This document shows positions 3,001 to 19,660 of a stretch of DNA of 46,125 nt, in pieces; the stretch's first letter is position 1, and every line of letters starts with the position of its first letter. Both the position numbers and the translations under genes were made by a program. The notes beneath the pieces were generated by a model. That model was not told the DNA's origin, did not search any database, and was given only the letters and a program-made list of their open reading frames with translations. Source of the stretch: Escherichia coli (GTDB taxonomy: Bacteria > Pseudomonadota > Gammaproteobacteria > Enterobacterales > Enterobacteriaceae); the NCBI RefSeq assembly GCF_965641715.1, contig NZ_OZ282456.1, one strand, 5' to 3'.

Positions 3001-3003
3001 TGC

Positions 3004-3113
3004 TTATATAATTATAGATTTATATAAAAAGTGCTTTACAGGTGGGAAAAAATTTCCTATGGTTATACCCGAAACCGAGCGATACCCGCCCTGGTTAAAC
3101 CGGAGATAACCCG
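3004..3113 (+). promoter_or_regulatory. Copy A of a triplicated ~110-bp promoter-leader element (AT-rich box, -35 TTTACA at 3035-3040, 17-bp spacer, -10 TATGGT at 3058-3063, leader with GGAG)
   Basis: Near-identical to 12067-12175 and 16786-16895; each copy ends at an ATG. Confidence 0.55.
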
Positions 3114-3494
3114 ATGAGCATGATTAAAATCCGCAAAAACGCTTTCCTTAAAATTCAAACTATCCTGGCTGGTTCTGTTGGCGTGATTTGCCGTTCTTCC
3201 TCAAGCCGCATCGATGACTGCTACGATGATGAGTATCGTGTGTCCTCATGCGATGAGGCTTTAACCTGGCTGAAGGAGAATCAGGAACGTGCCCAGGTAT
3301 ATCTGGAAACAGAGAACGGCAATCAGATGCTGCGTATTAGCGGTCGTTATGGATTTGAAACTACATTCATGGCCTATTTTAATCAGGCTTACTTTGACAA
3401 GGAGTTGGCCTGGTACACTGATCGCATGAGCAAAAGCGAGCCAGCCCCGATTACACCGCCGAACAATAAACCATTTTTATTCCTCGTTAAGTAA
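3114..3494 (+). CDS. Hypothetical protein (driven by promoter-leader copy A)
   Basis: 126-aa ORF directly after the conserved leader and Shine-Dalgarno. Confidence 0.45.
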   Translation: MSMIKIRKNAFLKIQTILAGSVGVICRSSSSRIDDCYDDEYRVSSCDEALTWLKENQERAQVYLETENGNQMLRISGRYGFETTFMAYFNQAYFDKELAWYTDRMSKSEPAPITPPNNKPFLFLVK

Positions 3495-4639: not shown

Positions 4640-5782
4640 TTATGGTCTGCTTTTCTGTGCCAGCTTATCAGCACATGTTTTTATCAGATCCTGTAGTGTC
4701 CTGGCTGGCAGGTTTGCATCCAGTACGCTGAGTATGCTGTTGTGATCTGCTTGGTCTACTACTTTGCCTGTCGGTGGTAGTAGCTTGAGCTGAGGATTCA
4801 GGTTTTCGTCAAAGCTGATAAGTGCTCTGGCGTTTCTGAGCAGATCAAGAAGTAAGGCTGATATCACATTTTCCTGAGTCATTGCTGGCAGATTTAGCGC
4901 CGCTTTGGTTTTCCCTGTTGCCTTGTCAAACTCCTTGATTAGTTCCTTCCTATAGTTCGGTTCCGTTAATAGCCGATTATGCTCTGTTGCCGCGCGGATA
5001 ATCGTTTTTTCCTGGTACAGTCGTTTAGCCAGATCGCGCTCGTACTGTGTTTTTAACACGCTGCTGATAGCGTTAAAGGCTTCAATGTAGGCTAGCTTGA
5101 TATCCTTCACGCCTGGACCGTCGATACTTTCCATGAGCAAGGTAAATCCGTCTTTTGTCATGCGATAGATTGTTATTTCGCGGTCGCTTCCTTCCAACGG
5201 TCGTTGCTCTTTAAAGAAATGACGCGCCGCAGCTGTGCGAGGAATGCGTAACGCATCGATGGCCATAACGATGGAATTGTTTGTGGTGCTGAATGCCTGG
5301 GCTACATCGGCTGAGGTTGTGAGTGGCTCGTTGTTGCACACCTTAACGTAATACATTGGTTTGGCGTTGAGCGTATCGACAACCTCACGAGCATTGTTTG
5401 GCGAGACGGTAACGGTCGCGGCCGTTTGCGCGTTCTGGTTGAAATAGCAGTCTTCCAGTTTTTCGAACACATCCCAAGCCTGATCGGTTTCGAGCATTTT
5501 GGCGTGACGGGCTGCTCCGTGTTCGGTCCAGAGAATTAGGGAGCGGGCATTTTTACCAACTAACCCGATTGTTTCAGGTCTGTTCTTGAACTCGCGTAAT
5601 TCGTTTTTTTCAATTTTAAAGTAATGCTTTCCGGCTATGAATCGCGTCGTGTTGTTCAGAAAGTTATCAGAAATGTTTTTGATTTTTGTTCCGTATAACT
5701 GCGCCAGAAGTTCAGTTGTAATAACGGGGATCTGGTTATGCAAGATAGGCTGTAGGGTGTTAACGGTCGGAAGCGTTTTCAT
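4640..5782 (-). CDS. Phage antirepressor (Ant-like)
   Basis: 380-aa ORF; N-terminal region with ILWTEHGAARHAKMLETDQAWDVFEKLEDCYF resembles antirepressor N-terminal domains and the C-terminal part resembles KilA-C-type domains, by recall. Confidence 0.55.
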   Translation of the reverse strand: MKTLPTVNTLQPILHNQIPVITTELLAQLYGTKIKNISDNFLNNTTRFIAGKHYFKIEKNELREFKNRPETIGLVGKNARSLILWTEHGAARHAKMLETDQAWDVFEKLEDCYFNQNAQTAATVTVSPNNAREVVDTLNAKPMYYVKVCNNEPLTTSADVAQAFSTTNNSIVMAIDALRIPRTAAARHFFKEQRPLEGSDREITIYRMTKDGFTLLMESIDGPGVKDIKLAYIEAFNAISSVLKTQYERDLAKRLYQEKTIIRAATEHNRLLTEPNYRKELIKEFDKATGKTKAALNLPAMTQENVISALLLDLLRNARALISFDENLNPQLKLLPPTGKVVDQADHNSILSVLDANLPARTLQDLIKTCADKLAQKSRP

Positions 5783-5970: not shown

Positions 5971-6130
5971 TGTGATATCTCCAATATATGGAACTATCAC
6001 CGCCATTCGAGGCTAATCAAATGGTGGTGAGCCGTACAGGGTTAGCCTTACCGGACACAATGACGAACCGGCGCGGATTTCTCCGCCCCTGTACGACCCA
6101 CCATAATTTGGGCGTAACAGTGCTCTACGC

Positions 6131-6157
6131 ATAAAAAAACCGCTAACGCGGTATGCG
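6131..6157 (-). terminator. Candidate intrinsic terminator (minus strand) in the antirepressor leader
   Basis: ACCGC-TAAC-GCGGT hairpin with a 7-A run on the plus strand (T7 on the minus strand). Confidence 0.35.
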
Positions 6158-6298
6158 CCATCGTGTTATTCAGGAGGCTAATCCCGACCGTAGATTTTGC
6201 TACGGCTCGGAAAGTGTCCACCAATGGCGCATTCATGTCAATACGGCGGGATTTTAACAGAGACAACCACATAGCGTGGGTTTATTGGTAGGCAGAAA

Positions 6299-6333: not shown

Positions 6334-6715
6334 GCTGATCGGATTCGCGGTCCTTTCAGCATAACGTCGTTGTGTAAACAACCACGCAAGCACAAGCGGC
6401 GTATCTATTCTTACTCAACTGAGGTGAATAGTCCACTATTCATATAAAGAAATTTAGTTCCTTAGTTCATGCAGAATGAAGTTTTTTAACTTCTTCGGAT
6501 GTAATTACATGTAATAAAAGCAATTGTTATTCCTTCATTATGAAGGCGAGGACGTGTAATATGGCTTGGGGCCTTTTCGCCGATTCGCACCCGGGCACCG
6601 ACTTTAAGGAAAGGATCATCCACTTGCCGTACACGCAAGCACAAGCGGAGTGCTTGCTCTCGCGTCATTTTCGTCGGTGGAGATGCCGTGAAACGGCCTG
6701 TAAGGGCCACACAAT

Positions 6716-6836
6716 GAAAAAATACTGTATGTGTATTTTTATCGTTGTTACTGGAGCTTTGTTTACGCCACATGGGGAGGGTTGGAAGATTACTGATAAC
6801 GCTCTGAATGTGACGATAAACATTAGCAGCAAGTAG
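6716..6836 (+). CDS. Candidate small hydrophobic peptide (40 aa)
   Basis: MKKYCMCIFIVVTGALFTPHGEGWKITDNALNVTINISSK; AAGGG upstream of the ATG; terminator immediately downstream. Confidence 0.2.
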
Positions 6837-6841
6837 CGATT

Positions 6842-6864
6842 AGGCCCCTTCGGGGGCCTTTTTT
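6842..6864 (+). terminator. Rho-independent terminator
   Basis: AGGCCCC-TTCG-GGGGCCT hairpin followed by TTTTTT. Confidence 0.55.
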
Positions 6865-7261: not shown

Positions 7262-7510
7262 TTACTTCTGGTTGTATTGAGCCTTGAGTAACTCAAAAGA
7301 TTTTGTCAGCACTTCTTTCAATGACATATCCATTGAACTGGCGAACGTTTTGTACTCGCGTTTAAATTCAGGGTCGACGTTAAACGCCATTTGTGCCCCA
7401 CCTGATTTGGTTCTGGTTGGCGTTTCAGTCGGGTCGAAAACCTGCGGTTGTTCGATCGATGGCGGTACGCCTTTGCTGTTCTTCTTTGGTGGTTTTGATG
7501 GTGCGGCCAT
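7262..7510 (-). CDS. Partition protein, ParG-like ribbon-helix-helix centromere-binding protein
   Basis: 82 aa; disordered N-tail then FNVDPEFKREYKTFASSMDMSLKEVLTKSFELL, matching the RHH pattern of type Ib ParG; lies immediately downstream of parA. Confidence 0.5.
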   Translation of the reverse strand: MAAPSKPPKKNSKGVPPSIEQPQVFDPTETPTRTKSGGAQMAFNVDPEFKREYKTFASSMDMSLKEVLTKSFELLKAQYNQK

Positions 7511-7553
7511 GTGTATCCCCTCTTATATAAATCTATAAAACTATAATTATATA

Positions 7554-8207
7554 TTACGCGGCAGTAGTCAGAGCCTCAAGCTGGTTGATAATCCCCTGAA
7601 TAACGTCGTCTGCCTTTTTGCGTGGCGCAACGTATGAGCATTCAATGAGGCTTAAGCCCTTATCCTGAGCTTTGCTCAGAGCTGGCTTGTGGGGAATGTA
7701 CTTATCGACAACAAAGTATGGCGTATTAGCCAGGTACTCTTGGGCTTCAATATAGTCAGCTTCATTTTCAGCCGCGCCGGAAAACACCATGCAAATTTTC
7801 TTGATTGGCACACCCTTTTTAACGATGCCGTGAGCAGTGTTAACGGTGGTTTCCAGGTCATCGGTAGAGAATCGGGTTGGCAAAATAACCATATCCAGAA
7901 ATTCAGATAGCTTCGGTACTGATTCAGATGCGTAGGCACCGCCATCAACGATAACCAGGTCGTATACTTCTGATTCGATGATTTTCTGGACTTGTGATGG
8001 TGTGCCGCACGGCTGCGCCGCGATTGCTGGTTCGATATTGTTGGCCATTCTGCGTTGTACCCAACGCGTTACCGTTCCGTTAAGCACATCCATATCGATC
8101 AGGCATACATTCCAGCCAGCCTTTGCATAAGCAACTGCTAAAGCACGGGCAATTGTTGATTTGGTTACGCCGCCTTTTCCGTTGAAAATACCTACAGAGA
8201 TAGTCAT
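7554..8207 (-). CDS. parA: Partition ATPase ParA/ParF (Walker-type)
   Basis: Deviant Walker A GKGGVTKST near the N-terminus; ATG at 8207 has GGAG 9 nt upstream (track start 8222 lacks SD). Confidence 0.8.
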   Translation of the reverse strand: MTISVGIFNGKGGVTKSTIARALAVAYAKAGWNVCLIDMDVLNGTVTRWVQRRMANNIEPAIAAQPCGTPSQVQKIIESEVYDLVIVDGGAYASESVPKLSEFLDMVILPTRFSTDDLETTVNTAHGIVKKGVPIKKICMVFSGAAENEADYIEAQEYLANTPYFVVDKYIPHKPALSKAQDKGLSLIECSYVAPRKKADDVIQGIINQLEALTTAA

Positions 8208-8222
8208 TTGTCGAGACTCCAT

Positions 8223-8345
8223 GTGTTTGGTTATATAATTCTATAAATCTATATTTATAGAACGAGGTAAGCATAACCAACTTTTTGGCGGATGGAAAGC
8301 GTTTTATATAATTATATAAATCTATAATCATATAAGCGGGCGTTA
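8223..8345. repeat. AT-rich repeat array upstream of parA; candidate partition site/operator
   Basis: Two copies of TTATATAATT(C/A)TATAAATCTATA at 8231-8260 and 8304-8335. Confidence 0.4.
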
Positions 8346-8824: not shown

Positions 8825-9481
8825 TCATAACCAGTTGACAACACTAACTACGCGGCCCAGAACTTTATAACGCTTAAATTCCTCGTTATTCAGATGCTTA
8901 GTGTTCATTTCAGCATCCCTTTCGGTTGACAGCATAACAGCATTGTCACCCGGTATGACTCTACAGTGCCTCAAAACAACCAGGCCATTTCTGTCTTCAA
9001 GGGCATAGATCCCCTCATGAATCTCTGTATCGTCTGTATTAATCAGGACTTGGGAGCCAGGGGATATTGTTGGTGACATTAACTCATCGTTGCTCTGGAG
9101 AACTGACAGAGACGATGGGTTGATGTTCTTGCTTCGTAGAATCTCCTGTTCTATCGCCAGCACTGGCTTTTCTCCGGCGTGCGATGCTATGTCATTTTTT
9201 ATAGCTACAAGCCCAGGAATAACAGGAGCGTTAGTATTCTGGGGTGGGAACGGGTTATCTGTTAAGCACGCGATATAAGGCGCTGATGCTTTCAGGGCGT
9301 GCGCGATTTTCTTGATGGCAGGTATCGATGGTTGTCTTAATCCGGCCTCATAGTTCTGCAAGGTGCTTAAGCCTATTCCAGTGACTTGCTGGAGATCTCC
9401 GGCAGTCATGCCGGATTGTTTCCGTAGAGTCTGAATGCGCAGACCTATTTCTTTCTTGATGTTCTCGTCGTTGCTTTTCAT
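8825..9481 (-). CDS. CI-like prophage repressor (HTH XRE domain plus S24 LexA-like peptidase domain)
   Basis: N-terminal HTH (LRKQSGMTAGDLQQVTGIGLSTLQNYEAG); C-terminal domain with the layout of self-cleaving CI/LexA repressors. Confidence 0.8.
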   Translation of the reverse strand: MKSNDENIKKEIGLRIQTLRKQSGMTAGDLQQVTGIGLSTLQNYEAGLRQPSIPAIKKIAHALKASAPYIACLTDNPFPPQNTNAPVIPGLVAIKNDIASHAGEKPVLAIEQEILRSKNINPSSLSVLQSNDELMSPTISPGSQVLINTDDTEIHEGIYALEDRNGLVVLRHCRVIPGDNAVMLSTERDAEMNTKHLNNEEFKRYKVLGRVVSVVNWL

Positions 9482-9518: not shown

Positions 9519-9636
9519 ACCACATTTAGTGGTTTTCACATGGTAAGACGAGAGGTGGACCACAAATAGAAGGTTATTTTTTGTTTCGCCCATTGAAAAA
9601 CCCACGATATGTGGTTTTAATACCACATATCGTGGT
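9519..9636. promoter_or_regulatory. Divergent immunity control region with three operators: ACCACATTTAGTGGT (9519-9533), CCACGATATGTGG (9602-9614), ACCACATATCGTGGT (9622-9636)
   Basis: Three copies of the 5-bp inverted repeat ACCAC/GTGGT with 5-bp spacer, plus a half-site at 9558-9566, between divergent repressor and cro-like genes. Confidence 0.55.
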
Positions 9637-9655
9637 TTTAACTGGAGTTCGTTAA

Positions 9656-10150
9656 ATGACCTTTCAGGAGTGGGTTGACGAAAATGGAGGCCAAATTGGT
9701 GTTGCCAGAAAGTTTGGCTTTACGTCATCACTGATTGGTGCCTGGTATCGCTTCGAGAGATTCCCTCGTGCGGATAACCTGACGCTGCTGGTGGCGTATT
9801 CGGAAGGCCGGATTAACGTCCAGCAATGGGCGGCAGATTTTGCCGAACGTCAGCGCCAGCGTAGCGATGGCACATCGGTTCGGCAGAACAAGATCAAAGG
9901 GAATCTCCCTGTTAACTGCTTATCAAGGCTGAAAGCGGTTTTCTCTGAGCTGGGGATGCCTGCGGAGCGTTGCAATCTACGCGGTCCGCGATTCATTGCT
10001 CGCTGGAAACACTCACACGTAACCGTTTCAGAGGTTCGTGATGCGATTACCGTGCTGGAGCTTAAGAATAAAGATTCCAGCGATATCGAGCTGATTCATA
10101 AGGAGATTAGCAACGCCCGGCGTTCAGCACTTGGGAGGCTTGAGGAATGA
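9656..10150 (+). CDS. Cro/CII-like early regulator (N-terminal Cro/YdaS-type HTH)
   Basis: Divergent from the repressor; N-terminus NGGQIGVARKFGFTSSLIGAWY resembles Cro/YdaS HTH. Confidence 0.4.
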   Translation: MTFQEWVDENGGQIGVARKFGFTSSLIGAWYRFERFPRADNLTLLVAYSEGRINVQQWAADFAERQRQRSDGTSVRQNKIKGNLPVNCLSRLKAVFSELGMPAERCNLRGPRFIARWKHSHVTVSEVRDAITVLELKNKDSSDIELIHKEISNARRSALGRLEE

Positions 10151-10662
10151 TGATTCTGGCCTTCTTTGGTGATAATCACCAGATTCAATCGCAGGTGGTG
10201 CACTACCTTGATCAAACGATTAAAGGATTTGTTATCGATCATATTGATAACGATAGCAAACATCTATCTGTAGATCAGAAAATTGGACGTGTGCAGCGAC
10301 TGGTTGCCAGCCGTAACAGACGTGACACCGTAACAGTAGTCACGGGGATAACGGAGGTCATGGAGTACCAGATGTTGCTGCATCGTGGAGCTGTTTTCTG
10401 CGTTCTTCCTGGCATTCTGCCAGCAATTCTTGCTCGTGGTTTTGTCCCTATTGATGAGTCGTTTTTATATGTAACCCCAAGCCGTTCCCTTCTGGATACG
10501 GAGGCGAAGCGTCGCATTTATATGATGCCGGACGAGGCATTTTCTGAATGTTACCGCCGTGAAATGAGGTTGGGTAAACGAGAAGTGTCTGTTGTTCGTG
10601 ATGGCAGGTTTTTAAGAAGCCGCACGGTGAAAAGCACCAGAAATGACGGGGGCCATCAATGA
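10147..10662 (+). CDS. Hypothetical early protein
   Basis: 171-aa ORF with start overlapping the upstream stop (ATGA). Confidence 0.4.
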   Translation: MMILAFFGDNHQIQSQVVHYLDQTIKGFVIDHIDNDSKHLSVDQKIGRVQRLVASRNRRDTVTVVTGITEVMEYQMLLHRGAVFCVLPGILPAILARGFVPIDESFLYVTPSRSLLDTEAKRRIYMMPDEAFSECYRREMRLGKREVSVVRDGRFLRSRTVKSTRNDGGHQ

Positions 10663-10892
10663 GTAGTTATGTTCGCGGTGCTGCGATGCATTGCCAGAAT
10701 TCCCAATTCTGGCGCTTTCTGACCAGTAAAACAGGGAAGAACGTTTCAAACAGTTCTGAGGCCTCTGTGATTCTGCGTGAGTTTTGCGGGATCTCATCCC
10801 GTAAAGAGCTGGCAAAGAACTACGCGGCCAGAAGCATGTATGTCCAGTTAATCAACGAGTTCAACCTCTTTATCAATGGTAAGGGGCGCTGA
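10659..10892 (+). CDS. Hypothetical protein
   Basis: 77-aa ORF, overlapping start and stop with neighbours. Confidence 0.3.
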   Translation: MSSYVRGAAMHCQNSQFWRFLTSKTGKNVSNSSEASVILREFCGISSRKELAKNYAARSMYVQLINEFNLFINGKGR

Positions 10893-11296
10893 TGAACGGA
10901 CGTACACCAACGAAGAAAGAGAAACTTTATATACAAGCGGTGCTCACTCACGTGGGTTGCATAGCTTGCATTATTGATGGCCGTGAAATTGAGAATCCAG
11001 AGCTGTGGACGGAGCTACATCACGATCCTGATTACGGCAGCGTTGATGAGAATTGCCACTTTCATAGCTTTGGATTGTGCGCACCACATCATCGCGGTGT
11101 TGTGCCTGGTGGTGGGCGCGTGCCTCCGCATATCGCCGTTCGTCACCCTCCCCTGAGTAATTGTGCTCGCTTTGTTGAGCGTTATGGCACCGATGAATTT
11201 TTGTGTGCGCAGACGTGGGAGCTGTTGCCGCAGTCAGTTAAAGACGAAATTGGGTTTGATCTTAGTCTTGGTGAAGTACCAGGGGATACCAAATGA
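10892..11296 (+). CDS. Cys/His-rich protein, possible HNH/Ref-like nuclease
   Basis: Motifs CIACI...HHD...CHFH...CAPHHRG suggest a metal-binding nuclease fold; family uncertain. Confidence 0.3.
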   Translation: MNGRTPTKKEKLYIQAVLTHVGCIACIIDGREIENPELWTELHHDPDYGSVDENCHFHSFGLCAPHHRGVVPGGGRVPPHIAVRHPPLSNCARFVERYGTDEFLCAQTWELLPQSVKDEIGFDLSLGEVPGDTK

Positions 11297-11625
11297 GATA
11301 TACCGGCTTTCGCAAACCAGCGACCAGGAAAAGCAAATACGGCAATAAAAAAACGGTTGTCGATGATATCGCTTTTGATAGCAAAAAAGAGGCTGATTAC
11401 TACTGCGAACTGAAGTTACTGAGAAAAGCTGGCCGCGTTGTGACGTTTCTTATGCAGGTGCCTTTTCATCTGCCTGGTGGTGTCGTTTATAAACTTGATT
11501 TCATGGTGTTTTATGACGATGGGACGATTGATTGTGTCGACACTAAAGGTGTGCGAACAGACGTCTACATCATGAAGAAAAAGCAGGTAGAGGCGCTTTA
11601 TCCCGTCACGATACGGGAGATCTGA
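11293..11625 (+). CDS. DUF1064-family phage protein
   Basis: KYGNKKTVVDDIAFDSKKEADYYCELKLL matches the DUF1064 N-terminal signature as recalled. Confidence 0.5.
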   Translation: MRYTGFRKPATRKSKYGNKKTVVDDIAFDSKKEADYYCELKLLRKAGRVVTFLMQVPFHLPGGVVYKLDFMVFYDDGTIDCVDTKGVRTDVYIMKKKQVEALYPVTIREI

Positions 11626-11628
11626 ACA

Positions 11629-12006
11629 GTGAGACGCGATCTGGATAGCTTGTTTGAGCTATGGGCGCTGTGGGTGCGCAATGGCTGCAACGCCCGTAGC
11701 GGTTTCGCGTCGATGTTAGAAATGATGATGGTTACGCGTTGCCAGTTTACCGGAGGGGGCGGCGCACCAAATGACTCACTGGAAACCAGTATCGAGGGAG
11801 CTGTGACGGCCCTCACGGTAGTTGATGAGACTGCGGCGCTGGTTGTCCGAATTGAATACGGGGCGTGGGAGATTCGGGGCCTCGACATAAATGCACCGCA
11901 TATTGATAAAGCCCACGCCCTTTCTCTTAGTCTCAGACAGTATCGCCGGAAGCTGGCAAAAGCCAGGGCGTATGTTGTCGACTATTTGAAAAAGCGAAGA
12001 GAGTGA
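11629..12006 (+). CDS. Putative antitermination protein Q-like
   Basis: 125 aa; N-terminal L.ELWALW pattern and size resemble small Q antiterminators; position just upstream of a promoter-leader copy and the late genes. Confidence 0.4.
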   Translation: MRRDLDSLFELWALWVRNGCNARSGFASMLEMMMVTRCQFTGGGGAPNDSLETSIEGAVTALTVVDETAALVVRIEYGAWEIRGLDINAPHIDKAHALSLSLRQYRRKLAKARAYVVDYLKKRRE

Positions 12007-12066
12007 AAGTGTCATTTTGAGCTGTTTTGATGGTGTGTAGACATCGGGAACATCGAAAATCTATAA

Positions 12067-12175
12067 ATATATAATTATAGATTTATATAAAAAGTGCTTT
12101 ACAGGTGGGAAAAAATTTCCTAAGGTTATACCCGAAACCGAGCGATACCCGCCCTGGTTAAACCGGAGAAATCTG
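12067..12175 (+). promoter_or_regulatory. Copy B of the triplicated promoter-leader element
   Basis: About 97 percent identical to 3004-3113 and 16786-16895 over about 100 bp; one base shorter before the ATG. Confidence 0.55.
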
Positions 12176-13243
12176 ATGAATAAACAAGTAATTATTTCTG
12201 ACTGGATCAACAACCCTAACAGCCTGTTAAGCACTGATACTGGCTACCTATTACGCCATGTTAATGGTCGTATGGTCAAAAGCGATGAGCACGAAACCTT
12301 TTTCTTTGTTGAAGACGATGGGCGTATCTATGAGGATGGTTACTCTTATGAAGCCCAAACTGGTTGTATCCCTGCGGAGCTGGTGGACGTAACAGAAGAT
12401 CTGCGCAAAGCATGGCTTGAACAGCAGCAGCGCGGAGATGATTACGTAAACACCTATCAGGAACGCCAGAACGCGCGTCTTGCCCGATATATTGCTCGTG
12501 CAGAAAAAGCCAGAAAAGAAGGTGCGGTAGCGCATAAGCGAGCGCATGACCTGTTGGATGTGATCCCGTTAGGCCAGCCGATTTTAGTTGACCATTATAG
12601 CGCGAAAGGCCATCGCCGCCGTTTGTCTAAAGCTGATGCGTTATTCAGAAAAGCGTTTGTTGAATGCGAAAGTAAAGCATCACACTACGAGAGCAAAGCC
12701 GCAGGTGTTGGTCGTAATGGAATTTCGTCTGATGATCCTGATGCGCTATTTAAGTTGCTTCGTAAGCTGCAAGGCTGCATGAAGTCACACGTCAAAATGA
12801 AGGCCGCAAATAAGGCCATTCGCAAATACAAAAAAGACCAATTACAGCAGCTTTCTGCATTAATCGATCTCAGGTTTACAGAAAGCGAAGCCAAAGAGTT
12901 ACTGGCCGGAGATTTCTGTGGGCACATCGGATTCCCTTCATACGCACTGAGCAACAATAAGGCCGAAATCAAACGACTACAGAGCCGTATTAAGGAGCTT
13001 GAATCGGTCAAGTCTGTAACAGGAGCACAGCGCGAAGAATACGACGGCTTTTCTATGGAGATAGATCCAGAGGATAACCGCATCCTGTTTTATTTCCCTG
13101 GCAAACCAGAGGCAAACATTCGTTCGCTGCTTAAATCACGCGCCTTTAAGTGGAGTCCAACCCGTAATGCATGGGTTCGCAAGATTACTCCAAACGCCCT
13201 GGCTGATGCCCGATATCTGAAAGAATCGCTATTGAAAGCCTGA
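12176..13243 (+). CDS. DUF3560-family protein
   Basis: Segments GQPILVDHYSAKGHRRRLSKADA, ISSDDPDALFKL and MKAANKAIRKYKK match DUF3560 as recalled. Confidence 0.5.
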   Translation: MNKQVIISDWINNPNSLLSTDTGYLLRHVNGRMVKSDEHETFFFVEDDGRIYEDGYSYEAQTGCIPAELVDVTEDLRKAWLEQQQRGDDYVNTYQERQNARLARYIARAEKARKEGAVAHKRAHDLLDVIPLGQPILVDHYSAKGHRRRLSKADALFRKAFVECESKASHYESKAAGVGRNGISSDDPDALFKLLRKLQGCMKSHVKMKAANKAIRKYKKDQLQQLSALIDLRFTESEAKELLAGDFCGHIGFPSYALSNNKAEIKRLQSRIKELESVKSVTGAQREEYDGFSMEIDPEDNRILFYFPGKPEANIRSLLKSRAFKWSPTRNAWVRKITPNALADARYLKESLLKA

Positions 13244-13320
13244 CAGTAAGCCTACGGCGGGATATCTCCCGCCGTATATAGAATTATATATTTATATAAA
13301 TGTATAAGGACGCCTCGACA

Positions 13321-13602
13321 ATGAAACGCAAAATTATTAACCCCCAAGATGTGATTAATTTCCTGACCGATCACCCATGTTCAAAAGTGGACGTAATCGC
13401 GGAGCACATTGGTGTGTCGCAGAACTCTATGCGTTGCAGACTGAGAAGCATGGTTGCCGAAGGACAGATAACAACCAGGAAAATAAATGGTTGCCTGTAC
13501 TACTCCGCTAAACCGGAATTGCCATTTGGCATGAATCCTAACTCCATGTTGTTTAACACCTTATTAGCCAAAGTTAAGCCGTTGAGAGGGGCTGTGGCAT
13601 GA
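13321..13602 (+). CDS. Hypothetical protein (possible winged-helix DNA-binding)
   Basis: Track frame 13300-13602; the 13300 start lies inside an AT-rich motif, ATG at 13321 preferred. Confidence 0.35.
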   Translation: MKRKIINPQDVINFLTDHPCSKVDVIAEHIGVSQNSMRCRLRSMVAEGQITTRKINGCLYYSAKPELPFGMNPNSMLFNTLLAKVKPLRGAVA

Positions 13603-13992
13603 GCATCAAAACCCATACCGGAATAATCATTACCAATGATGGTGAGAAAAGAGTGAAGTTGCGCGAAACGCCGACAACCTGGTGTGTTGGTCCGAAAGAA
13701 ACATAATGAAGCACATACAACCGAAAACATGGCAGAAACTGGACTCTATGGGCGTTAAGTTGGAGAAGATTACTCAACTTAAGCAGTGGCATATCGGCGA
13801 ATATTATGGAAGTCCTGGTCGGGATGTTCGGTTGGTCAAAAGTTAAGTATTGTTTTTTTATTGATCGATTAACCACAATATGAAGGTTTTTTTATGGGAA
13901 AACCTTGTTTTAGGTGGTAACTGGGTGTAGTGTTTCATTTAACGTAGTAAAACTGCGTTAAGCGATTACCGCGTAATTTGTTGCTTTATGAA

Positions 13993-14023
13993 GCCCTGCC
14001 TTTTCGGCGGGGCTTTTTTTTTT
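13993..14023 (+). terminator. Strong Rho-independent terminator immediately upstream of the lysis cassette
   Basis: 8-bp stem GCCCTGCC/GGCGGGGC (one G-U), loop TTTTC, followed by a 10-T run; holin ATG 14 bp downstream. Confidence 0.65.
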
Positions 14024-14036
14024 AACGAGGATTTCA

Positions 14037-14432
14037 ATGTCAGCAGAACCAATTTCCGGTACGGCCGTTGCTGCTGGTGGCCTGATGGGTGCCAGCGTTT
14101 TTGGTATTGCAACTGGTATTGATTACGGCGTTGTATTCGGGGCATTTGCTGGCGCTGTTTTCTATGTTGCTACAGCGGTGAATATTAGCCGTCTCAAGCT
14201 GATTGGCTATTTCTTTACATCGTTCATTGTTGGAGTGATTGGAGCGCCGTTAGTTGGCTCATTTCTTGCCAAATGGACCAGCTACAACGATCGTCCTCTG
14301 GATGCGCTTGGTGCGGTTATTGTGGCTGCATTGACCATTAAAATCCTCACGTTCGTAAACAGCCAGGATCTCGGTAGCATCTTTGGAATGCTTTCCCGCT
14401 TACGTGGAGGGGGTTCAAATGGTAAGCAGTGA
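14037..14432 (+). CDS. Holin-like membrane protein
   Basis: 131 aa with several hydrophobic segments; first gene of the lysis cassette. Confidence 0.45.
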   Translation: MSAEPISGTAVAAGGLMGASVFGIATGIDYGVVFGAFAGAVFYVATAVNISRLKLIGYFFTSFIVGVIGAPLVGSFLAKWTSYNDRPLDALGAVIVAALTIKILTFVNSQDLGSIFGMLSRLRGGGSNGKQ

Positions 14433-14715
14433 CCCGTCAGCACTGATTAATGCGGTGCTTTGCACAGTAATAGTAATGGCGCTGATGCTTTATCGACGGA
14501 AAGACTCCAGGCATCGTCCATTTGTTTCCTTTCTGGCTTATATCTACGTCATTGTATACGCCAATGTTCCCTTCCGTTATGTGTTCGGTCTTTATCAAGA
14601 ATCCCACTGGCTGGTGGTTATTGGAAATCTGATTATCTGCATCGTTGTTCTGTATTTCAGGGGCAATCTGGCGCGGATAGTTGACGCATTAGGGTTTAAT
14701 CATGACCAAAGATGA
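14419..14715 (+). CDS. Second membrane protein of the lysis cassette (holin/antiholin-like)
   Basis: ATG at 14419 with GGAGG 8 nt upstream; about three predicted transmembrane segments; track frame 14383-14715. Confidence 0.4.
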   Translation: MVSSDPSALINAVLCTVIVMALMLYRRKDSRHRPFVSFLAYIYVIVYANVPFRYVFGLYQESHWLVVIGNLIICIVVLYFRGNLARIVDALGFNHDQR

Positions 14716-15244
14716 GATTTTTAACAGTGTTCTTGGAAAAGAGGGCGGCTATGTGGATCACCCTGACGACAAGGGAGGCCCAACAAAGTGGGGCATTACT
14801 CAGAACACTGCCCGTGCTCATGGATACCGTGGCGATATGCGCGATTTAACTCGCGAACAGGCTCTGGAAATCCTTGAGGCTGATTACTGGTACGGCCCAC
14901 GTTTTGACCAGATAGCAACTCTGTCGCCGGATATTGCCGCAGAACTGTGCGACACGGGCGTCAACATGGGGCCAACAGTGGCGTCAAAAATGCTTCAACG
15001 CTGGCTGAATGTGTTCAACCTGCGTGGGAAGCTGTATCCCGATTTGGATGCAGACGGACGAATCGGTCCACGTACCATTAATGCGCTGCGTGCTTATCTT
15101 GGGAATCGGGGAAAAGACGGCGAACGGGTGATGCTGACGTCGCTGAACTGTACGCAGGGCGAACGCTATCTGGAGTTGGCGGAGAAGCGCGAGGCTAATG
15201 AGTCGTTTGTCTACGGCTGGATGAAAGAGCGAGTGGTGGTATGA
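14702..15244 (+). CDS. Endolysin (GH108-type N-terminal domain with peptidoglycan-binding C-terminal domain)
   Basis: N-terminal signature GKEGGYVDHPDDKGGPTKWGIT typical of GH108 lysozymes. Confidence 0.75.
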   Translation: MTKDEIFNSVLGKEGGYVDHPDDKGGPTKWGITQNTARAHGYRGDMRDLTREQALEILEADYWYGPRFDQIATLSPDIAAELCDTGVNMGPTVASKMLQRWLNVFNLRGKLYPDLDADGRIGPRTINALRAYLGNRGKDGERVMLTSLNCTQGERYLELAEKREANESFVYGWMKERVVV

Positions 15245-15519
15245 CTGGTTTGAAGGCCGTTTTGTCATTTATTGGCACAATTATATTGGTTGCATTTGGC
15301 GCGTTTGGTTTTGGTCGTATGAAGGGGCGAGAAAAGGCCGAAGATGAAGCTGAAAAGCAGCGCATTAATGAGAATGCAGCCGCCGTAAAAGCCACTGCGG
15401 AGCGGCGTATAGAAGTGACAAAAGAGGTGGGGAATGTACAGCAGAGTGTTAACCATATGGCTGATGACGATGTTGATCGCGAGCTGCGGGAGTCGTGGAA
15501 GCGTCCCGGTGGTGGTTGA
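15241..15519 (+). CDS. i-spanin (Rz-like)
   Basis: N-terminal transmembrane helix then charged coiled-coil region; follows the endolysin with overlapping start. Confidence 0.5.
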   Translation: MTGLKAVLSFIGTIILVAFGAFGFGRMKGREKAEDEAEKQRINENAAAVKATAERRIEVTKEVGNVQQSVNHMADDDVDRELRESWKRPGGG

Positions 15520-15643
15520 TACCGCCTGTGATTGGGTAAAGCCCATCTACCTGACTGATCACGACATCGATGTTATGGACCGACAGACAAAGAAAGATAT
15601 TCTGGCTCATAACAGGGCATGGGAAATCAACTGTCCAAAGTAA
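15434..15643 (+). CDS. o-spanin (Rz1-like lipoprotein) overlapping the i-spanin in another frame
   Basis: Lipobox-like LIASC within the signal sequence; overlapped Rz/Rz1-type arrangement. Confidence 0.5.
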   Translation: MYSRVLTIWLMTMLIASCGSRGSVPVVVDTACDWVKPIYLTDHDIDVMDRQTKKDILAHNRAWEINCPK

Positions 15644-15720
15644 TATATATTTCTATAATTATATAAATATATAGTTACAACATTCTATGCGCTTTTCTCA
15701 TGGGCGCACGCATCAACCAT

Positions 15721-15803
15721 GTTTGTCTGATATGCCGCCGCGCCCAAAAATCCTGAATTTATTGGCTGGGATTTTCGTGCGCGGCGCCACACCAGACAAA
15801 CAA
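15721..15803. other. Long multi-tier inverted repeat upstream of the tRNA
   Basis: Outer arms GTTTGTCTG/CAGACAAAC, middle arms GCCGCGC/GCGCGGC, inner arms AAAATCC/GGATTTT. Confidence 0.35.
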
Positions 15804-15812
15804 ATCAAATAT

Positions 15813-15888
15813 GGCCCCTTAGCTCAGTGGTTAGAGCAGGCGACTCATAATCGCACGGTCATCGGTTCAAATCCGGTAGGGGCCACCA
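15813..15888 (+). tRNA. tRNA with CAT anticodon (Met by anticodon; sequence resembles the lysidine-type tRNA-Ile2)
   Basis: Manual cloverleaf: 7-bp acceptor stem GGCCCCT/AGGGGCC, D-arm GCTC-AGTGGTTA-GAGC, anticodon loop CTCATAA, T-loop GGTTCAAATCC, 3' CCA encoded. Confidence 0.8.
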
Positions 15889-16195
15889 ATTCACTCTCAC
15901 ACATAAAGATAAGCGCGGTGGAGTTACTTCTTCGTGCTCATCTTTATGCGTGCCTGGTGCGCATTTCGGGCGAACGTGGGGCTAAGTTACAGGCAGGGCC
16001 TGTTATCCGCAAAGGGGTAAAAGCTGGAGCGGCACGGAACTGTAGCCGTGTTACCAAAACAGCGTTGTCGGGCGATATCCGGCACACAACAGGCAAGGGC
16101 ATTAATCAGTCTGGTTAGTGCCCTTTTCGTTGTGTTTGCTGTAGAGCTGGCCAGCGTTATGACTGCCGGAGATAAGCGCCGGAGGCACAATTAAC

Positions 16196-16783
16196 ATGGA
16201 GGCAATTGCATTGTTTAATCTGATTTATGCAGATCCCCCCTGGGAATACAAAGACAAGTGTAAGGATGGGAATCGTGGAGCTGGTTTTAAGTATCCAACG
16301 ATGAAAGCTGAGGAGATTGCTCGTATTCCTGTCTGGCAGCTTGCTAATCCTGAATCGTGTTTGTTGGCCATGTGGTGGGTTCCGACTCAGCCAGAAGAAG
16401 CGTTGCTGGTGGTTAAAGCATGGGGATTCAGGCTGATGACCATGAAGGGCTTCACATGGAACAAATGTGGTAGCCGACAACCAGATAAGCTGGTGATGGG
16501 GATGGGGCATATGACTCGTGCAAACAGTGAAGATTGCTTGTTTGCGGTAAAAGGCAAACTGCCGACCCGTCTTGATGCGGGGATCATTCAGTCGTTTACA
16601 TCGCCTCGTCTGGAGCATTCTCGGAAGCCTGATGTGGTCCGTGACAAGCTGGTAAAGCTGTTAGGTGATGTTCCTCGTATTGAGCTGTTTGCTCGCGGTG
16701 ATTTACCTGATGGCTGGCATGGCTGGGGCAACCAGTGCAATGGAGGTATCCAGTTGCATGATGCTCTCTGGCAAGTGGCATAG
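16196..16783 (+). CDS. MT-A70-family DNA N6-adenine methyltransferase
   Basis: Catalytic DPPW motif near the N-terminus (IYADPPWEY), size about 195 aa. Confidence 0.75.
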   Translation: MEAIALFNLIYADPPWEYKDKCKDGNRGAGFKYPTMKAEEIARIPVWQLANPESCLLAMWWVPTQPEEALLVVKAWGFRLMTMKGFTWNKCGSRQPDKLVMGMGHMTRANSEDCLFAVKGKLPTRLDAGIIQSFTSPRLEHSRKPDVVRDKLVKLLGDVPRIELFARGDLPDGWHGWGNQCNGGIQLHDALWQVA

Positions 16784-16785
16784 AA

Positions 16786-16895
16786 TTATATAATTATAGA
16801 TTTATATAAAAAGTGCTTTACAGGTGGGAAAAAATTTCCTAAGGTTATACCCGAAACCGAGCGATACCCGCCCTGGTTAAACCGGAGATAACCCG
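16786..16895 (+). promoter_or_regulatory. Copy C of the triplicated promoter-leader element
   Basis: Near-identical to copies A and B; ends at the ATG of 16896. Confidence 0.55.
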
Positions 16896-17165
16896 ATGAA
16901 AGTACAAGACCGTGAAGTAGTAAAAAACCTCCTGCAATACCTGACCTCAAAAAACCTGACGGGCAGCGTTGAGTTCCGTGAAGCGTTAAAACATTTCAAC
17001 GTCACTACGGTTTATCGTTGGGAAAACGAACATTCTGAAAGACCGTATGTGGTGGATGTTTTTGCGCCTGATATTGAGTGCGGTTTTGAGCGTCATTCGT
17101 TCAAGGAGAAACATTCCGCTGATGTTTTTTGTGAGGTTGTATGTGCGGCAGGAGATGATGAGTGA
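16896..17165 (+). CDS. Hypothetical protein (driven by promoter-leader copy C)
   Basis: 89-aa ORF directly after the conserved leader. Confidence 0.4.
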   Translation: MKVQDREVVKNLLQYLTSKNLTGSVEFREALKHFNVTTVYRWENEHSERPYVVDVFAPDIECGFERHSFKEKHSADVFCEVVCAAGDDE

Positions 17166-17362: not shown

Positions 17363-17384
17363 ACCGTAACGATAACGAACAACG

Positions 17385-17411
17385 AGCCTCGGCAATTGCC
17401 GGGGCTTTTTT
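17385..17411 (+). terminator. Rho-independent terminator
   Basis: AGCCTCGG-CAATTG-CCGGGGCT hairpin followed by TTTTTT. Confidence 0.5.
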
Positions 17412-17436
17412 ACATCCAGACAAAGGAGAACATGGG

Positions 17437-18744: not shown

Positions 18745-18772
18745 TGCAGATACCTGTTTGCTATTTATTTAT

Positions 18773-18802
18773 AAAACCACCTGCGGGTGGTTTTGTTTTT
18801 TT
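18773..18802 (+). terminator. Rho-independent terminator
   Basis: AAAACCACC-TGCG-GGTGGTTTT hairpin followed by a T-run. Confidence 0.55.
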
Positions 18803-19036
18803 AGCATTACAGCAGCTCTTGTGCTTACCAGGGGCTGCGATAATGCGCAAACCAAAGCTGCCTCATTAACTCCAGCTCGCTGTAGAGTTAATGCTGGTTG
18901 CTTTTTTATTACTGGAAGGTGGGCGACCGCCGTCAGTTGCGACCTGACGACAGTCATTCATACCCACAGGGTGCCGTGGATACAAACCGAGGCCCACTTG
19001 CTTGCACAAGCGAGGGGATTTTAGCGGATAAACGGC

Positions 19037-19660
19037 ATGACAAAACATCTTAATGTGGTTTCTTTACCACTTTCTGTGTTGATTGGTTATGAAAAGAACG
19101 CTCGCACACACTCCGTGGAGCAGGTAGATCAGATTGTTGCCAGCATACAGGAGTACGGATGGACTAATCCGATCCTGATAGACGAGAACAACGTTGTAAT
19201 TGCTGGTCATGGTCGAATTGCTGCGGCCACTCAGTTGGGGATGGATGATGTTCCCTGCATTGTTCTGGAAGGGCTAACGGAGAATCAGAAGAAGGCATAT
19301 CGTCTGGCCGACAACCGTATTCCGCTGAATGCTGGTTGGGATGAAGAGCTGTTAAGCGCGGAGCTTGCAGATCTTGCGGCCGATGATTTTGCTCTGGACT
19401 CAATTGGTTTTACTCAGCGCGAACTGGATAACTTATTGAGTGCGGCAGTCTACGATGACACAGAGGGTATGGATATCCCATTTGAGAAGGATGAGGCCAA
19501 ATCAGGCGTAAAAGTTCAGTACCTGTCATTTGGAGGTCATAAAATCCCGGCAACGGATGAGGAAGCGGATCGTTTTGACTGCGCGGTGTCTCGTTATGTT
19601 GATGATAATGGCAGCTATATCGGATTTGTATCCGCATTGCTGGCTGGGGAGGTGTGCTGA
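19037..19660 (+). CDS. ParB N-terminal (ParB/Srx-like nuclease) domain protein
   Basis: Motifs YEKNARTHS and VIAGHGR typical of ParB-like domains found in phages; paralogous to 22327-22917. Confidence 0.6.
   Translation: MTKHLNVVSLPLSVLIGYEKNARTHSVEQVDQIVASIQEYGWTNPILIDENNVVIAGHGRIAAATQLGMDDVPCIVLEGLTENQKKAYRLADNRIPLNAGWDEELLSAELADLAADDFALDSIGFTQRELDNLLSAAVYDDTEGMDIPFEKDEAKSGVKVQYLSFGGHKIPATDEEADRFDCAVSRYVDDNGSYIGFVSALLAGEVC

Follow-up and report, generated by a model that had tools for sequence, protein, structure and literature searches.

In lambda, in phages 21 and 82 and in the Stx phages, late transcription is under Q control at PR'/tR'. The Q-loading site includes a Q-binding element between the -35 and -10 hexamers, a -10-like element in the initially transcribed region and a terminator downstream (PMC6606751). 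Q21 consists of a body similar to sigma region 4 and an extra N-terminal helix (PMC6606751). StxS is a short transcript of the late promoter that ends at tR' (PMC7547250). In this work, we analysed the lysis switch of an Escherichia coli phage-plasmid. The window, that is, the whole stretch of DNA analysed, is 46,125 nucleotides (nt) long (assembly GCF_965641715.1, contig NZ_OZ282456.1), and its lysis genes are located behind an intrinsic terminator at 13993-14023. The original prediction stated that these genes are expressed late by lambda-like antitermination. The conserved terminator, the lack of a gap for a promoter and three more plus-strand terminators before the virion genes speak for this, and neither of the two late promoters named in the prediction found support. 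We conclude from profile and fold comparisons that the gene at 11629-12006 encodes a distant relative of the Q21/QuuD antiterminators, and a conserved block at 13900-13959 is most likely a better candidate for the site of its loading. The proposed switch follows the usual lambdoid scheme, with a regulator from an unannotated branch of the known Q family.

The locus resembles lambdoid late control in that a small regulator gene closes the early operon, the holin gene comes after an intrinsic terminator, and the late genes, all on one strand, are preceded by more terminators. In the candidate promoter, the spacer contains a conserved hexamer, and a second hexamer, similar to -10, is placed at roughly +1 to +6. 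Unlike the lambdoid systems, the regulator of the window passes no curated Q model, the candidate promoter is a weak match to the consensus, and 1.9 kb separate the regulator gene from the site, with accessory genes that have their own promoters in between. In addition, this replicon is maintained as a plasmid-prophage and carries IncFII RepA as well as a partition locus.

The terminator and the late genes

The terminator and the genes and terminators that follow it are given below.
13993-14023, plus strand: intrinsic terminator with an 8-bp stem, loop TTTTC and T10; the first strong plus-strand terminator past the early promoter region
14037-15643, plus strand: lysis cassette, by Pfam and PHROGs matches
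14037-14432, plus strand: holin gene (Pfam/PHROGs)
14419-14715, plus strand: second holin-like gene (Pfam/PHROGs)
14702-15244, plus strand: GH108 endolysin gene (Glyco_hydro_108 and PG_binding_3)
15241-15519, plus strand: Rz gene (PHROGs spanin)
15434-15643, plus strand: Rz1 gene (PHROGs, Rz1-like spanin)
16095-16133, plus strand: second terminator-like site, past a tRNA gene, with a 14-bp stem and a weak T tail (folding energy dG -18.2)
17384-17413, plus strand: third intrinsic terminator (dG -18.5)
18771-18803, plus strand: fourth intrinsic terminator, 230 nt ahead of the ParB-N-domain gene at 19037

In the first terminator, positions 13993-14000 (GCCCTGCC) pair with 14006-14013 (GGCGGGGC), forming seven G-C pairs and one T.G pair. 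The loop TTTTC occupies 14001-14005, the stem can be extended by two A-T pairs, and ten T follow at 14014-14023. This G+C-rich hairpin with a T-run is intergenic (13846 to 14037), has the same orientation as its neighbours and folds with an energy of -18.8 kcal/mol. The terminator scan ranked it top of its region (11 pairs, 7 G-C). We defined a strict terminator by dG <= -15 and at least 7/8 T and searched both strands of the window. Seven strict terminators were found, whereas 60 dinucleotide shuffles gave 0.1 on average and never more than 1, and the only perfect T10 among them belongs to 13993-14023. The T-run is separated from the holin ATG at 14037 by 13 nt. These hold only the Shine-Dalgarno sequence GAGGA (14027-14031), and therefore a promoter between the T-run and the ATG is excluded. 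Between the early promoter region (~9640) and 13990, no strong terminator was found on the plus strand. A minus-strand terminator-like hairpin with a T-run (dG -17) is located within the DUF3560 coding region, at 12835-12875.

Related loci L010, L011 and L017 keep the terminator with other stem sequences, and the differences are compensatory. In L010 and L011, which are Salmonella-type relatives, it lies at the equivalent place, after the homologue of a 46-amino-acid (aa) open reading frame (ORF), and its stem differs (AAGCCTCGCTT...AAGCGGGGCTT vs AAGCCCTGCC...GGCGGGGCTT). A non-homologous lysis cassette starts there ~40-48 nt past the terminator, with PHROG 20 holin, PHROG 7 endolysin and PHROG 214 spanin vs PHROG 198, 217 and 315 in the window. 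In L017, where the Q-like protein is 54% identical, the terminator lies ~20 nt ahead of a PHROG 198 holin gene. Since the terminator is kept even before non-homologous cassettes, its junction with lysis genes is a selected feature of the family, whichever lysis genes follow. The best explanation of these sequence data is that 13993-14023 functions as an intrinsic terminator and marks the boundary between early/accessory and late genes. Thus, the predicted hairpin with an 8-bp stem and a 10-T run just ahead of the holin ATG is real by sequence, terminator scan, shuffles and conservation, and the 13-nt gap indeed leaves no room for a promoter.

The genes behind the terminator are a lysis cassette, as had been proposed: two holin-family genes (Phage_holin_8, E 1.7e-37; Phage_holin_3_7, E 8.9e-18), a GH108 endolysin and Rz/Rz1 spanins. 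The sequence GTTACAACATTC comes at 15676-15687 in the window, after the repeat array that follows Rz1; in L016 (~9815) and L017 (~11400) it comes after the terminator that trails the conserved block. This difference in position suggests that the slot taken by the lysis cassette varies between lineages.

The ParB-N-domain gene at 19037 opens the virion-gene block and, judging from its position only, may encode the small terminase subunit. The consensus scan found no plus-strand promoter from 18796 to 19037. Every late gene thus has at least one intrinsic terminator ahead of it, and in most cases four, which means that late expression has to pass terminators. The arrangement of the sequence makes it likely that read-through as such is needed for the late genes.

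The regulator gene and its candidate loading site

Two elements upstream of the terminator are proposed to control the switch.
11629-12006, plus strand: Q-like gene, 125 aa, GTG start, with a sigma-region-4-like helix-turn-helix (HTH) in the C-terminal half of the product
13900-13959, plus strand: conserved non-coding block of 60 bp, ~55 nt upstream of the terminator hairpin; candidate late promoter and Q-loading site

The Q-like gene is annotated only as a hypothetical protein, and all 31 close homologues are unnamed. Ref-nuclease and DUF1064 genes precede it and the lysis cassette follows, so it occupies the usual Q position; this order is kept in relatives. The genomic context of one distant family member repeats the order ParA / CI-type (S24) repressor / Q-like, and that of a second was uninformative. 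Direct searches with the protein found no Pfam family at E <= 0.01 and no match to the Protein Data Bank (PDB), and the gathering threshold of PF06530 was failed; the control QuuD sequence scored 179 bits with this model. In PHROGs, the protein belongs to a group labelled as of unknown function. The NCBIfam family PA0613 was rejected as far below its threshold (21 bits vs the cut-off of 100), and a literature search on PA0613 did not find a functional study.

A profile search collected ~130 cluster representatives of 110-150 aa. A 95-member profile found the Q21 entries 6jnx and 6p18 in the PDB at E 1.2e-4, over the N-terminal 36 residues only, through the LELWxxW motif. Foldseek with the AlphaFold model (pLDDT 77) also gave Q21 as the best PDB matches, with a probability of 0.91-0.94. 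Q21 is the only significant sequence-profile match among solved structures and gives the longest structural alignment as well. The predicted fold is that of Q21/QuuD, an N-terminal helix packed on the sigma-region-4-like HTH body. PF06530 was matched weakly by 12/95 family members (best E 3.6e-4), and hhalign against the QuuD-family alignment was colinear over 109 columns with E 1.4e-3 and a probability of only 17%.

Compared to Q21/QuuD (PF06530, PDB 6JNX and 6P18), the window protein is of similar size (125 aa vs 127 in QuuD and 162 in Q21) and has the N-terminal motif LE(L/R)W(G/A)xW, the sigma-region-4-like body and the colinear profile alignment. Unlike them, it has no Pfam match, is only ~16-22% identical and contains a conserved glycine-rich loop FSGGGG, modelled with low confidence (residues 23-46). 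A direct-repeat Q-binding element of the TGAGCA type with 8-bp spacing, as for Q21, is not visible. We conclude that the protein is a distant relative of the Q21/QuuD antiterminators by profile and predicted fold and is not a member by the Pfam criterion. The name "Q-like" that it had been given is therefore justified by position and kinship, and the Pfam model does not support it. The protein adds a divergent branch to a family in which, among solved structures, only Q21 was matched significantly by sequence profile. The proposed switch gene of this common phage-plasmid is annotated as a hypothetical protein.

The gap ahead of the terminator is 190 nt long and holds the conserved block. In the block, TTGTTT (13905-13910) can be read as -35, followed by a 17-nt spacer that opens with TAGGTG (13911-13916), and TAGTGT (13928-13933) as -10. 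Six nt past TAGTGT there is a -10-like TAACGT (13940-13945), and then a 9-bp hairpin (13939-13947 / 13953-13961). The block is near-invariant in L010 and L011, though the flanking proteins are 51-69% and the Q-like proteins 89-93% identical. L017 has TTGAAT, 17 nt opening with TAGGTG, TAGTGT, 6 nt, TAACGT, a differently stemmed hairpin and a terminator 90 nt on; between TAGGTG and TAGTGT, 9/11 nt differ from the window and the length is equal. Hexamers at fixed spacing with a free spacer are a signature of promoter-type recognition. Each locus has a single copy of the motif, which is on the plus strand in every case and precedes the first strong terminator past the Q-like gene. The T-run starts 70-90 nt past the motif in all of the 11 family loci, and lysis genes come next. 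Scanning IMG/VR with the first block pattern gave 8 loci. A looser pattern gave 116 matches, which is about chance level; 11 of them had TTG at -35 and a terminator, and all 11 came from the known family, so that these scans revealed no new lineages. The other hairpin of the gap, 13881-13904, was rejected as a conserved element since relatives keep it only loosely. By sequence, the block is most likely a better candidate for a Q-loading late promoter than the triplicated element or the AT-rich box named in the original prediction.

These data suggest the following mechanism. In the plasmid-prophage state, transcription coming from upstream would halt at 13993-14023, and the lysis genes would stay silent. 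In the absence of the Q-like protein, a promoter in the block would give only an RNA of ~80 nt, made constitutively in the prophage and ending at the strong terminator ahead of the lysis cassette, in the manner of lambda 6S RNA and StxS. Unlike these, the RNA of the window is only predicted, and its sole database resemblance is a sub-threshold GcvB match. Upon induction, the early rightward operon would produce the 125-aa product of 11629-12006, and this protein would load onto RNA polymerase at a promoter-proximal site. The likeliest loading site is the block 13900-13959 and not the triplicated element: TAGGTG at the spacer start would be a candidate Q-binding element, and TAACGT is placed where a sigma-dependent pause element would lie. 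The loaded polymerase would then read through 13993-14023 and the three later terminators (~16125, 17407 and 18796) into the virion genes. The complete model, with the Q-like protein acting at the block, is moderately probable; in it, promoter activity, pausing, binding and antitermination are predicted. Together with the distant Q21/QuuD placement, the concrete loading site makes this a directly testable model of how lysis is switched on.

Several observations weigh against the block as a Q-loading promoter. Only 6/12 of its positions match the sigma-70 consensus, so the consensus scan (threshold 9/12) missed it, and known late promoters of this presumed kind are strong. The same scan found no plus-strand promoter at all from 10000 to 17000 and thus neither supports nor excludes the candidates. 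L016 keeps a similar G+T-rich sequence without the hexamer spacing. The distance of 1.9 kb from the Q-like gene is unusual for Q systems. Finally, the Rfam model of GcvB (RF00022) aligns end to end to 13863-14021 on the plus strand with 34.3 bits (E 2.6e-5 in a 2-kb search), covering the G+U-rich stretch, the hairpins and the terminator. This score means that the stretch could be RNA rather than promoter DNA.

It is unlikely that the terminator mainly closes an upstream unit. In that case, an accessory operon started from the cassette (12098-12126), from the array at 13274 or from both would end here, possibly with an Hfq-type small RNA from 13863-14021 (with its own promoter or as a 3'-untranslated-region product), and lysis would follow induction by partial read-through with no dedicated antiterminator. 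The region is the 3' end of a string of genes with their own promoters. Hfq-binding small RNAs typically end in a strong hairpin and a long T-run, and 13863-14021 folds much better than shuffles (z = -4.65). However, the GcvB score is below the Rfam gathering threshold of 42 and is absent from the gathering-threshold scan of the window, and the search of L010, L011 and L017 at E <= 0.05 gave no match; by sequence, the likeness could reflect a small RNA or chance. Three spaced hexamers with a diverged spacer, as conserved between the window and L017, resemble protein-DNA recognition and not an RNA seed. A hairpin of -18.8 kcal/mol with T10 should leak little, and three more terminators would have to be passed before the virion genes. 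The small-RNA and late-promoter readings appear partly compatible, since StxS, a late-promoter leader cut short by termination, is a small RNA as well (PMC7547250).

It is still less probable that the 125-aa protein is a sigma-region-4-like activator or appropriator of one or more late promoters and not a processive antiterminator, with the terminators overcome otherwise. Sigma models are indeed matched weakly within the family (Sigma70_ECF by 19/95 members, Sigma70_r4_2 by 14/95), and the weak candidate -35 of the block is of a kind often rescued by activators. But this would leave the passage of four intrinsic terminators unexplained, and Q21, the leading match in both profile and structural comparison, is the only solved protein with the whole architecture of an LELWxxW N-terminal helix and a sigma-region-4-like body. 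Processive antitermination from the block is therefore the reading that we prefer.

The triplicated promoter cassette

The first of the late promoters named in the original prediction was the second copy of a triplicated element (copy B). The copies and the accessory genes of this region are as follows.
3003-3113, plus strand: cassette copy 1, before ORF 3114-3494; TTTACA-17-TATGGT, 9/12 matches; far from the late genes
12055-12175, plus strand: cassette copy 2, ahead of the DUF3560 gene, which it presumably drives
16780-16895, plus strand: cassette copy 3, before ORF 16896-17165
12176-13846, plus strand: accessory genes from the Q-like gene to the terminator, with the DUF3560 gene at 12176-13243 and a winged-HTH-like 93-aa gene at 13321-13602
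13599-13706 (35 aa) and 13706-13846 (46 aa), plus strand: small accessory ORFs, from the ORF list

The three copies are mutually 95-99% identical. All follow one plan up to the ATG: an AT-only array, -35, a 17-nt spacer, -10, a leader and a Shine-Dalgarno sequence. In copy 2, these are the 8-bp-repeat array 12055-12091, TTTACA (12098-12103), a spacer with a palindrome, TAAGGT (12121-12126), a leader hairpin (12136-12159) and the Shine-Dalgarno sequence. Three lineages of relatives (L010, L011, L014, L015, L019 and L020) keep the plan with other sequence: TTGCGA-17-TACTAT, TTGTCG-17-TATAAT and TTGAAG-17-TATGGT. A lineage-specific palindrome, TAGGnnnAAAAAnnnCCTA, is present in every spacer. The leader hairpin is always present, with 3/6 pairs changed on both sides and none broken. 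Since the architecture is kept across lineages and the hairpin changes are compensatory, the element is very likely a genuine, portable, general promoter cassette of the sigma-70 type.

The cassette may feed transcription toward the terminator, yet it is a poor candidate for Q loading. Its copies precede unrelated genes (ORF 3114, the DUF3560 gene and ORF 16896). In lineage X (L014, L015 and L020), cassettes are seen ~6-7 kb ahead of the Q-like gene, and the 7 kb downstream of that gene contain no copy. The leader has no conserved -10-like element. That copy 2 is the late promoter, with the spacer palindrome as the Q-binding element and the copies at 3003 and 16780 as further entry points for antitermination, is quite improbable: a cassette is the first promoter past the Q-like gene in the window and in L019, the 17-nt spacer palindrome lies where lambda and phage 21 carry Q-binding elements, and copy 3 precedes the last two terminators ahead of the virion block, but copy 1 points toward convergent genes, the placement in lineage X and the leader do not fit, and the Q21-binding element is a direct repeat and not a palindrome. 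Thus, the cassette before gene 3114 and the sister lineage speak against copy B as the late promoter.

In most relatives, ~2.2 kb of extra genes (Ea22-like and others) are located exactly between the 35-aa and 46-aa ORFs (13704-13706), for example at 8106-10300 in L001 and 11000-12969 in L022; the window carries the short form.

AT-only arrays, the partition locus and the replicon

The other promoter that had been named, an AT-rich box at 13275-13308, turned out to be one of a set of arrays.
13274-13308, plus strand: array S6, four tandem units TATAGAAT TATATATT TATATAAA TGTATAAG, immediately ahead of the Shine-Dalgarno sequence that belongs to the 93-aa gene
15637-15680, strand not assigned: array S7, directly after Rz1, with arms inverted relative to S6
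7262-8334, minus strand: partition locus with a parA-like gene (7554-8222), an 82-aa gene (7262-7510) and three AT-only arrays

Exactly eight A+T-only arrays are present in the window (3003-3030, 7523-7557, 8231-8262, 8301-8334, 12055-12091, 13274-13308, 15637-15680 and 16780-16814), and its virion half has none. Each consists of 3-5 tandem 8-bp units (TATATAAT, TATAGATT, TATATAAA) in the same orientation as the next gene. Two of them (8231-8262 and 8301-8334) are upstream of parA, and 7523-7557 is before the small 82-aa gene. The parA-like product is a small Walker-type ParA by its matches to Pfam CbiA, ParA and MipZ; the NCBIfam model ParA_partition matched it at E 4.7e-22, below the cut-off. 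For the 82-aa protein, a disordered basic tail followed by two helices is predicted, and its family alignment has a strand-helix-helix pattern, as in ribbon-helix-helix (RHH) proteins; database and fold searches with this protein gave no RHH confirmation. As other arrays of the set flank parA and RHH-like genes, the AT-rich box is probably not a late promoter.

The phage-plasmid N15 is known for its dispersed centromere sites. ParG of TP228 recognises, at parH/OF, 4-bp boxes with 4-bp AT-rich spacers in direct or inverted order (PMC3130281). The locus of the window is similar to ParF/ParG partition of type Ib: the gene for a small ParA-type ATPase is followed by a small gene whose product has a predicted disordered basic tail and two helices, and arrays with an 8-bp period, direct and inverted, are located directly upstream of parA. 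The scattering of array copies at promoters elsewhere on the replicon is a further likeness to TP228 and N15. Unlike ParF/ParG, the units are pure A+T, eight or more sites mostly abut gene starts, and binding is only predicted.

In relatives, the array units are lineage-specific (GATATAAA; TAAATAAT; TAAAGATT), and a 14-kb stretch of L017 carries up to 12 arrays or more. The unit agrees with the DNA-reading strand predicted for the small protein (MAFNV; LLLRL; xNFNV) more closely than with the recognition helix of the Q-like protein. Because the arrays surround the parA operon, have the ParG-like period and co-vary with this strand, they are probably binding sites of the small partition protein that double as operators. 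Binding of the arrays by the Q-like protein was also considered, since the Q21 site is a direct repeat with 8-bp spacing as well. It was judged less likely, because the same recognition-helix motif occurs with different array units across lineages, and L016 and L017 have common array units yet differing recognition helices.

It is possible, as a tentative extension, that the eight arrays are dispersed sites for the RHH-like protein, and that the partition protein acts as a global regulator of the plasmid-prophage on accessory promoters, two of which feed the lysis terminator, with sites bracketing the lysis module. Late expression would then be set jointly with the Q21-like antiterminator acting at its remote loading site. 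Arrays common to the partition locus and to promoters near the lysis module suggest a link of plasmid partition with phage gene control. The dispersed arrays are a more unusual feature than the terminator gate.

In parA (8195-8222) and the 93-aa gene (13309-13323), the motif CTCGACAA is located between the ATG and its Shine-Dalgarno sequence. It has this position in several genes of relatives too (L010-L015, L019 and L020, just past the Q-like gene or arrays), and an AT-only array always precedes it.

The window is a complete plasmid, 99.9% identical to the E. coli plasmid CP055628.1 over 11600-15700 and 100% over 13860-14036. It carries an IncFII-type RepA gene (1-849), the parA-like gene with its small gene, a repressor gene on the minus strand (8825-9481) whose product has an HTH and a weak, sub-threshold Peptidase_S24 match, a P1-style C4/isrK RNA region beside an antirepressor gene, the lysis cassette and the full set of virion genes. 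This combination defines the replicon as a phage-plasmid. Near relatives are the 48.5-kb plasmid of E. coli ATCC 25922 (98.7% identical over 11600-15700) and Yersinia phages vB_YpM_39, 41 and 44. The stretch 11600-15700 is matched by 73 records of the plasmid collection, of which 48 cover at least 80% of it. Of 5,426 complete E. coli genomes, 145 gave a match, the reference strain ATCC 25922 among them. The phage-plasmid family is common.

Some other elements were observed on the replicon. A perfect-looking 42-bp double palindrome (CCACGATATGTGG / CCACATATCGTGG) lies at 9598-9639, between the divergent repressor gene and early operon, and a third palindrome copy lies at 6267-6279, near the isrK region; the repressor encoded at 8825-9481 probably uses them as operators. 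C4 antisense RNA and isrK matches are located upstream of an ORF6N/Rha antirepressor gene and form with it a P1-type immI-like module (4640-5782, 6020-6108 and 6133-6206, all on the minus strand). A ryfA-like RNA match is near this module (6567-6864, plus strand), and all three RNA matches exceed the Rfam gathering scores. Between the lysis cassette and an MT-A70 methyltransferase gene, there is a tRNA gene with the anticodon CAT (15813-15888, plus strand), which ARAGORN assigns to Met; its equivalent in the ATCC 25922 plasmid record is annotated as tRNA-Ile.

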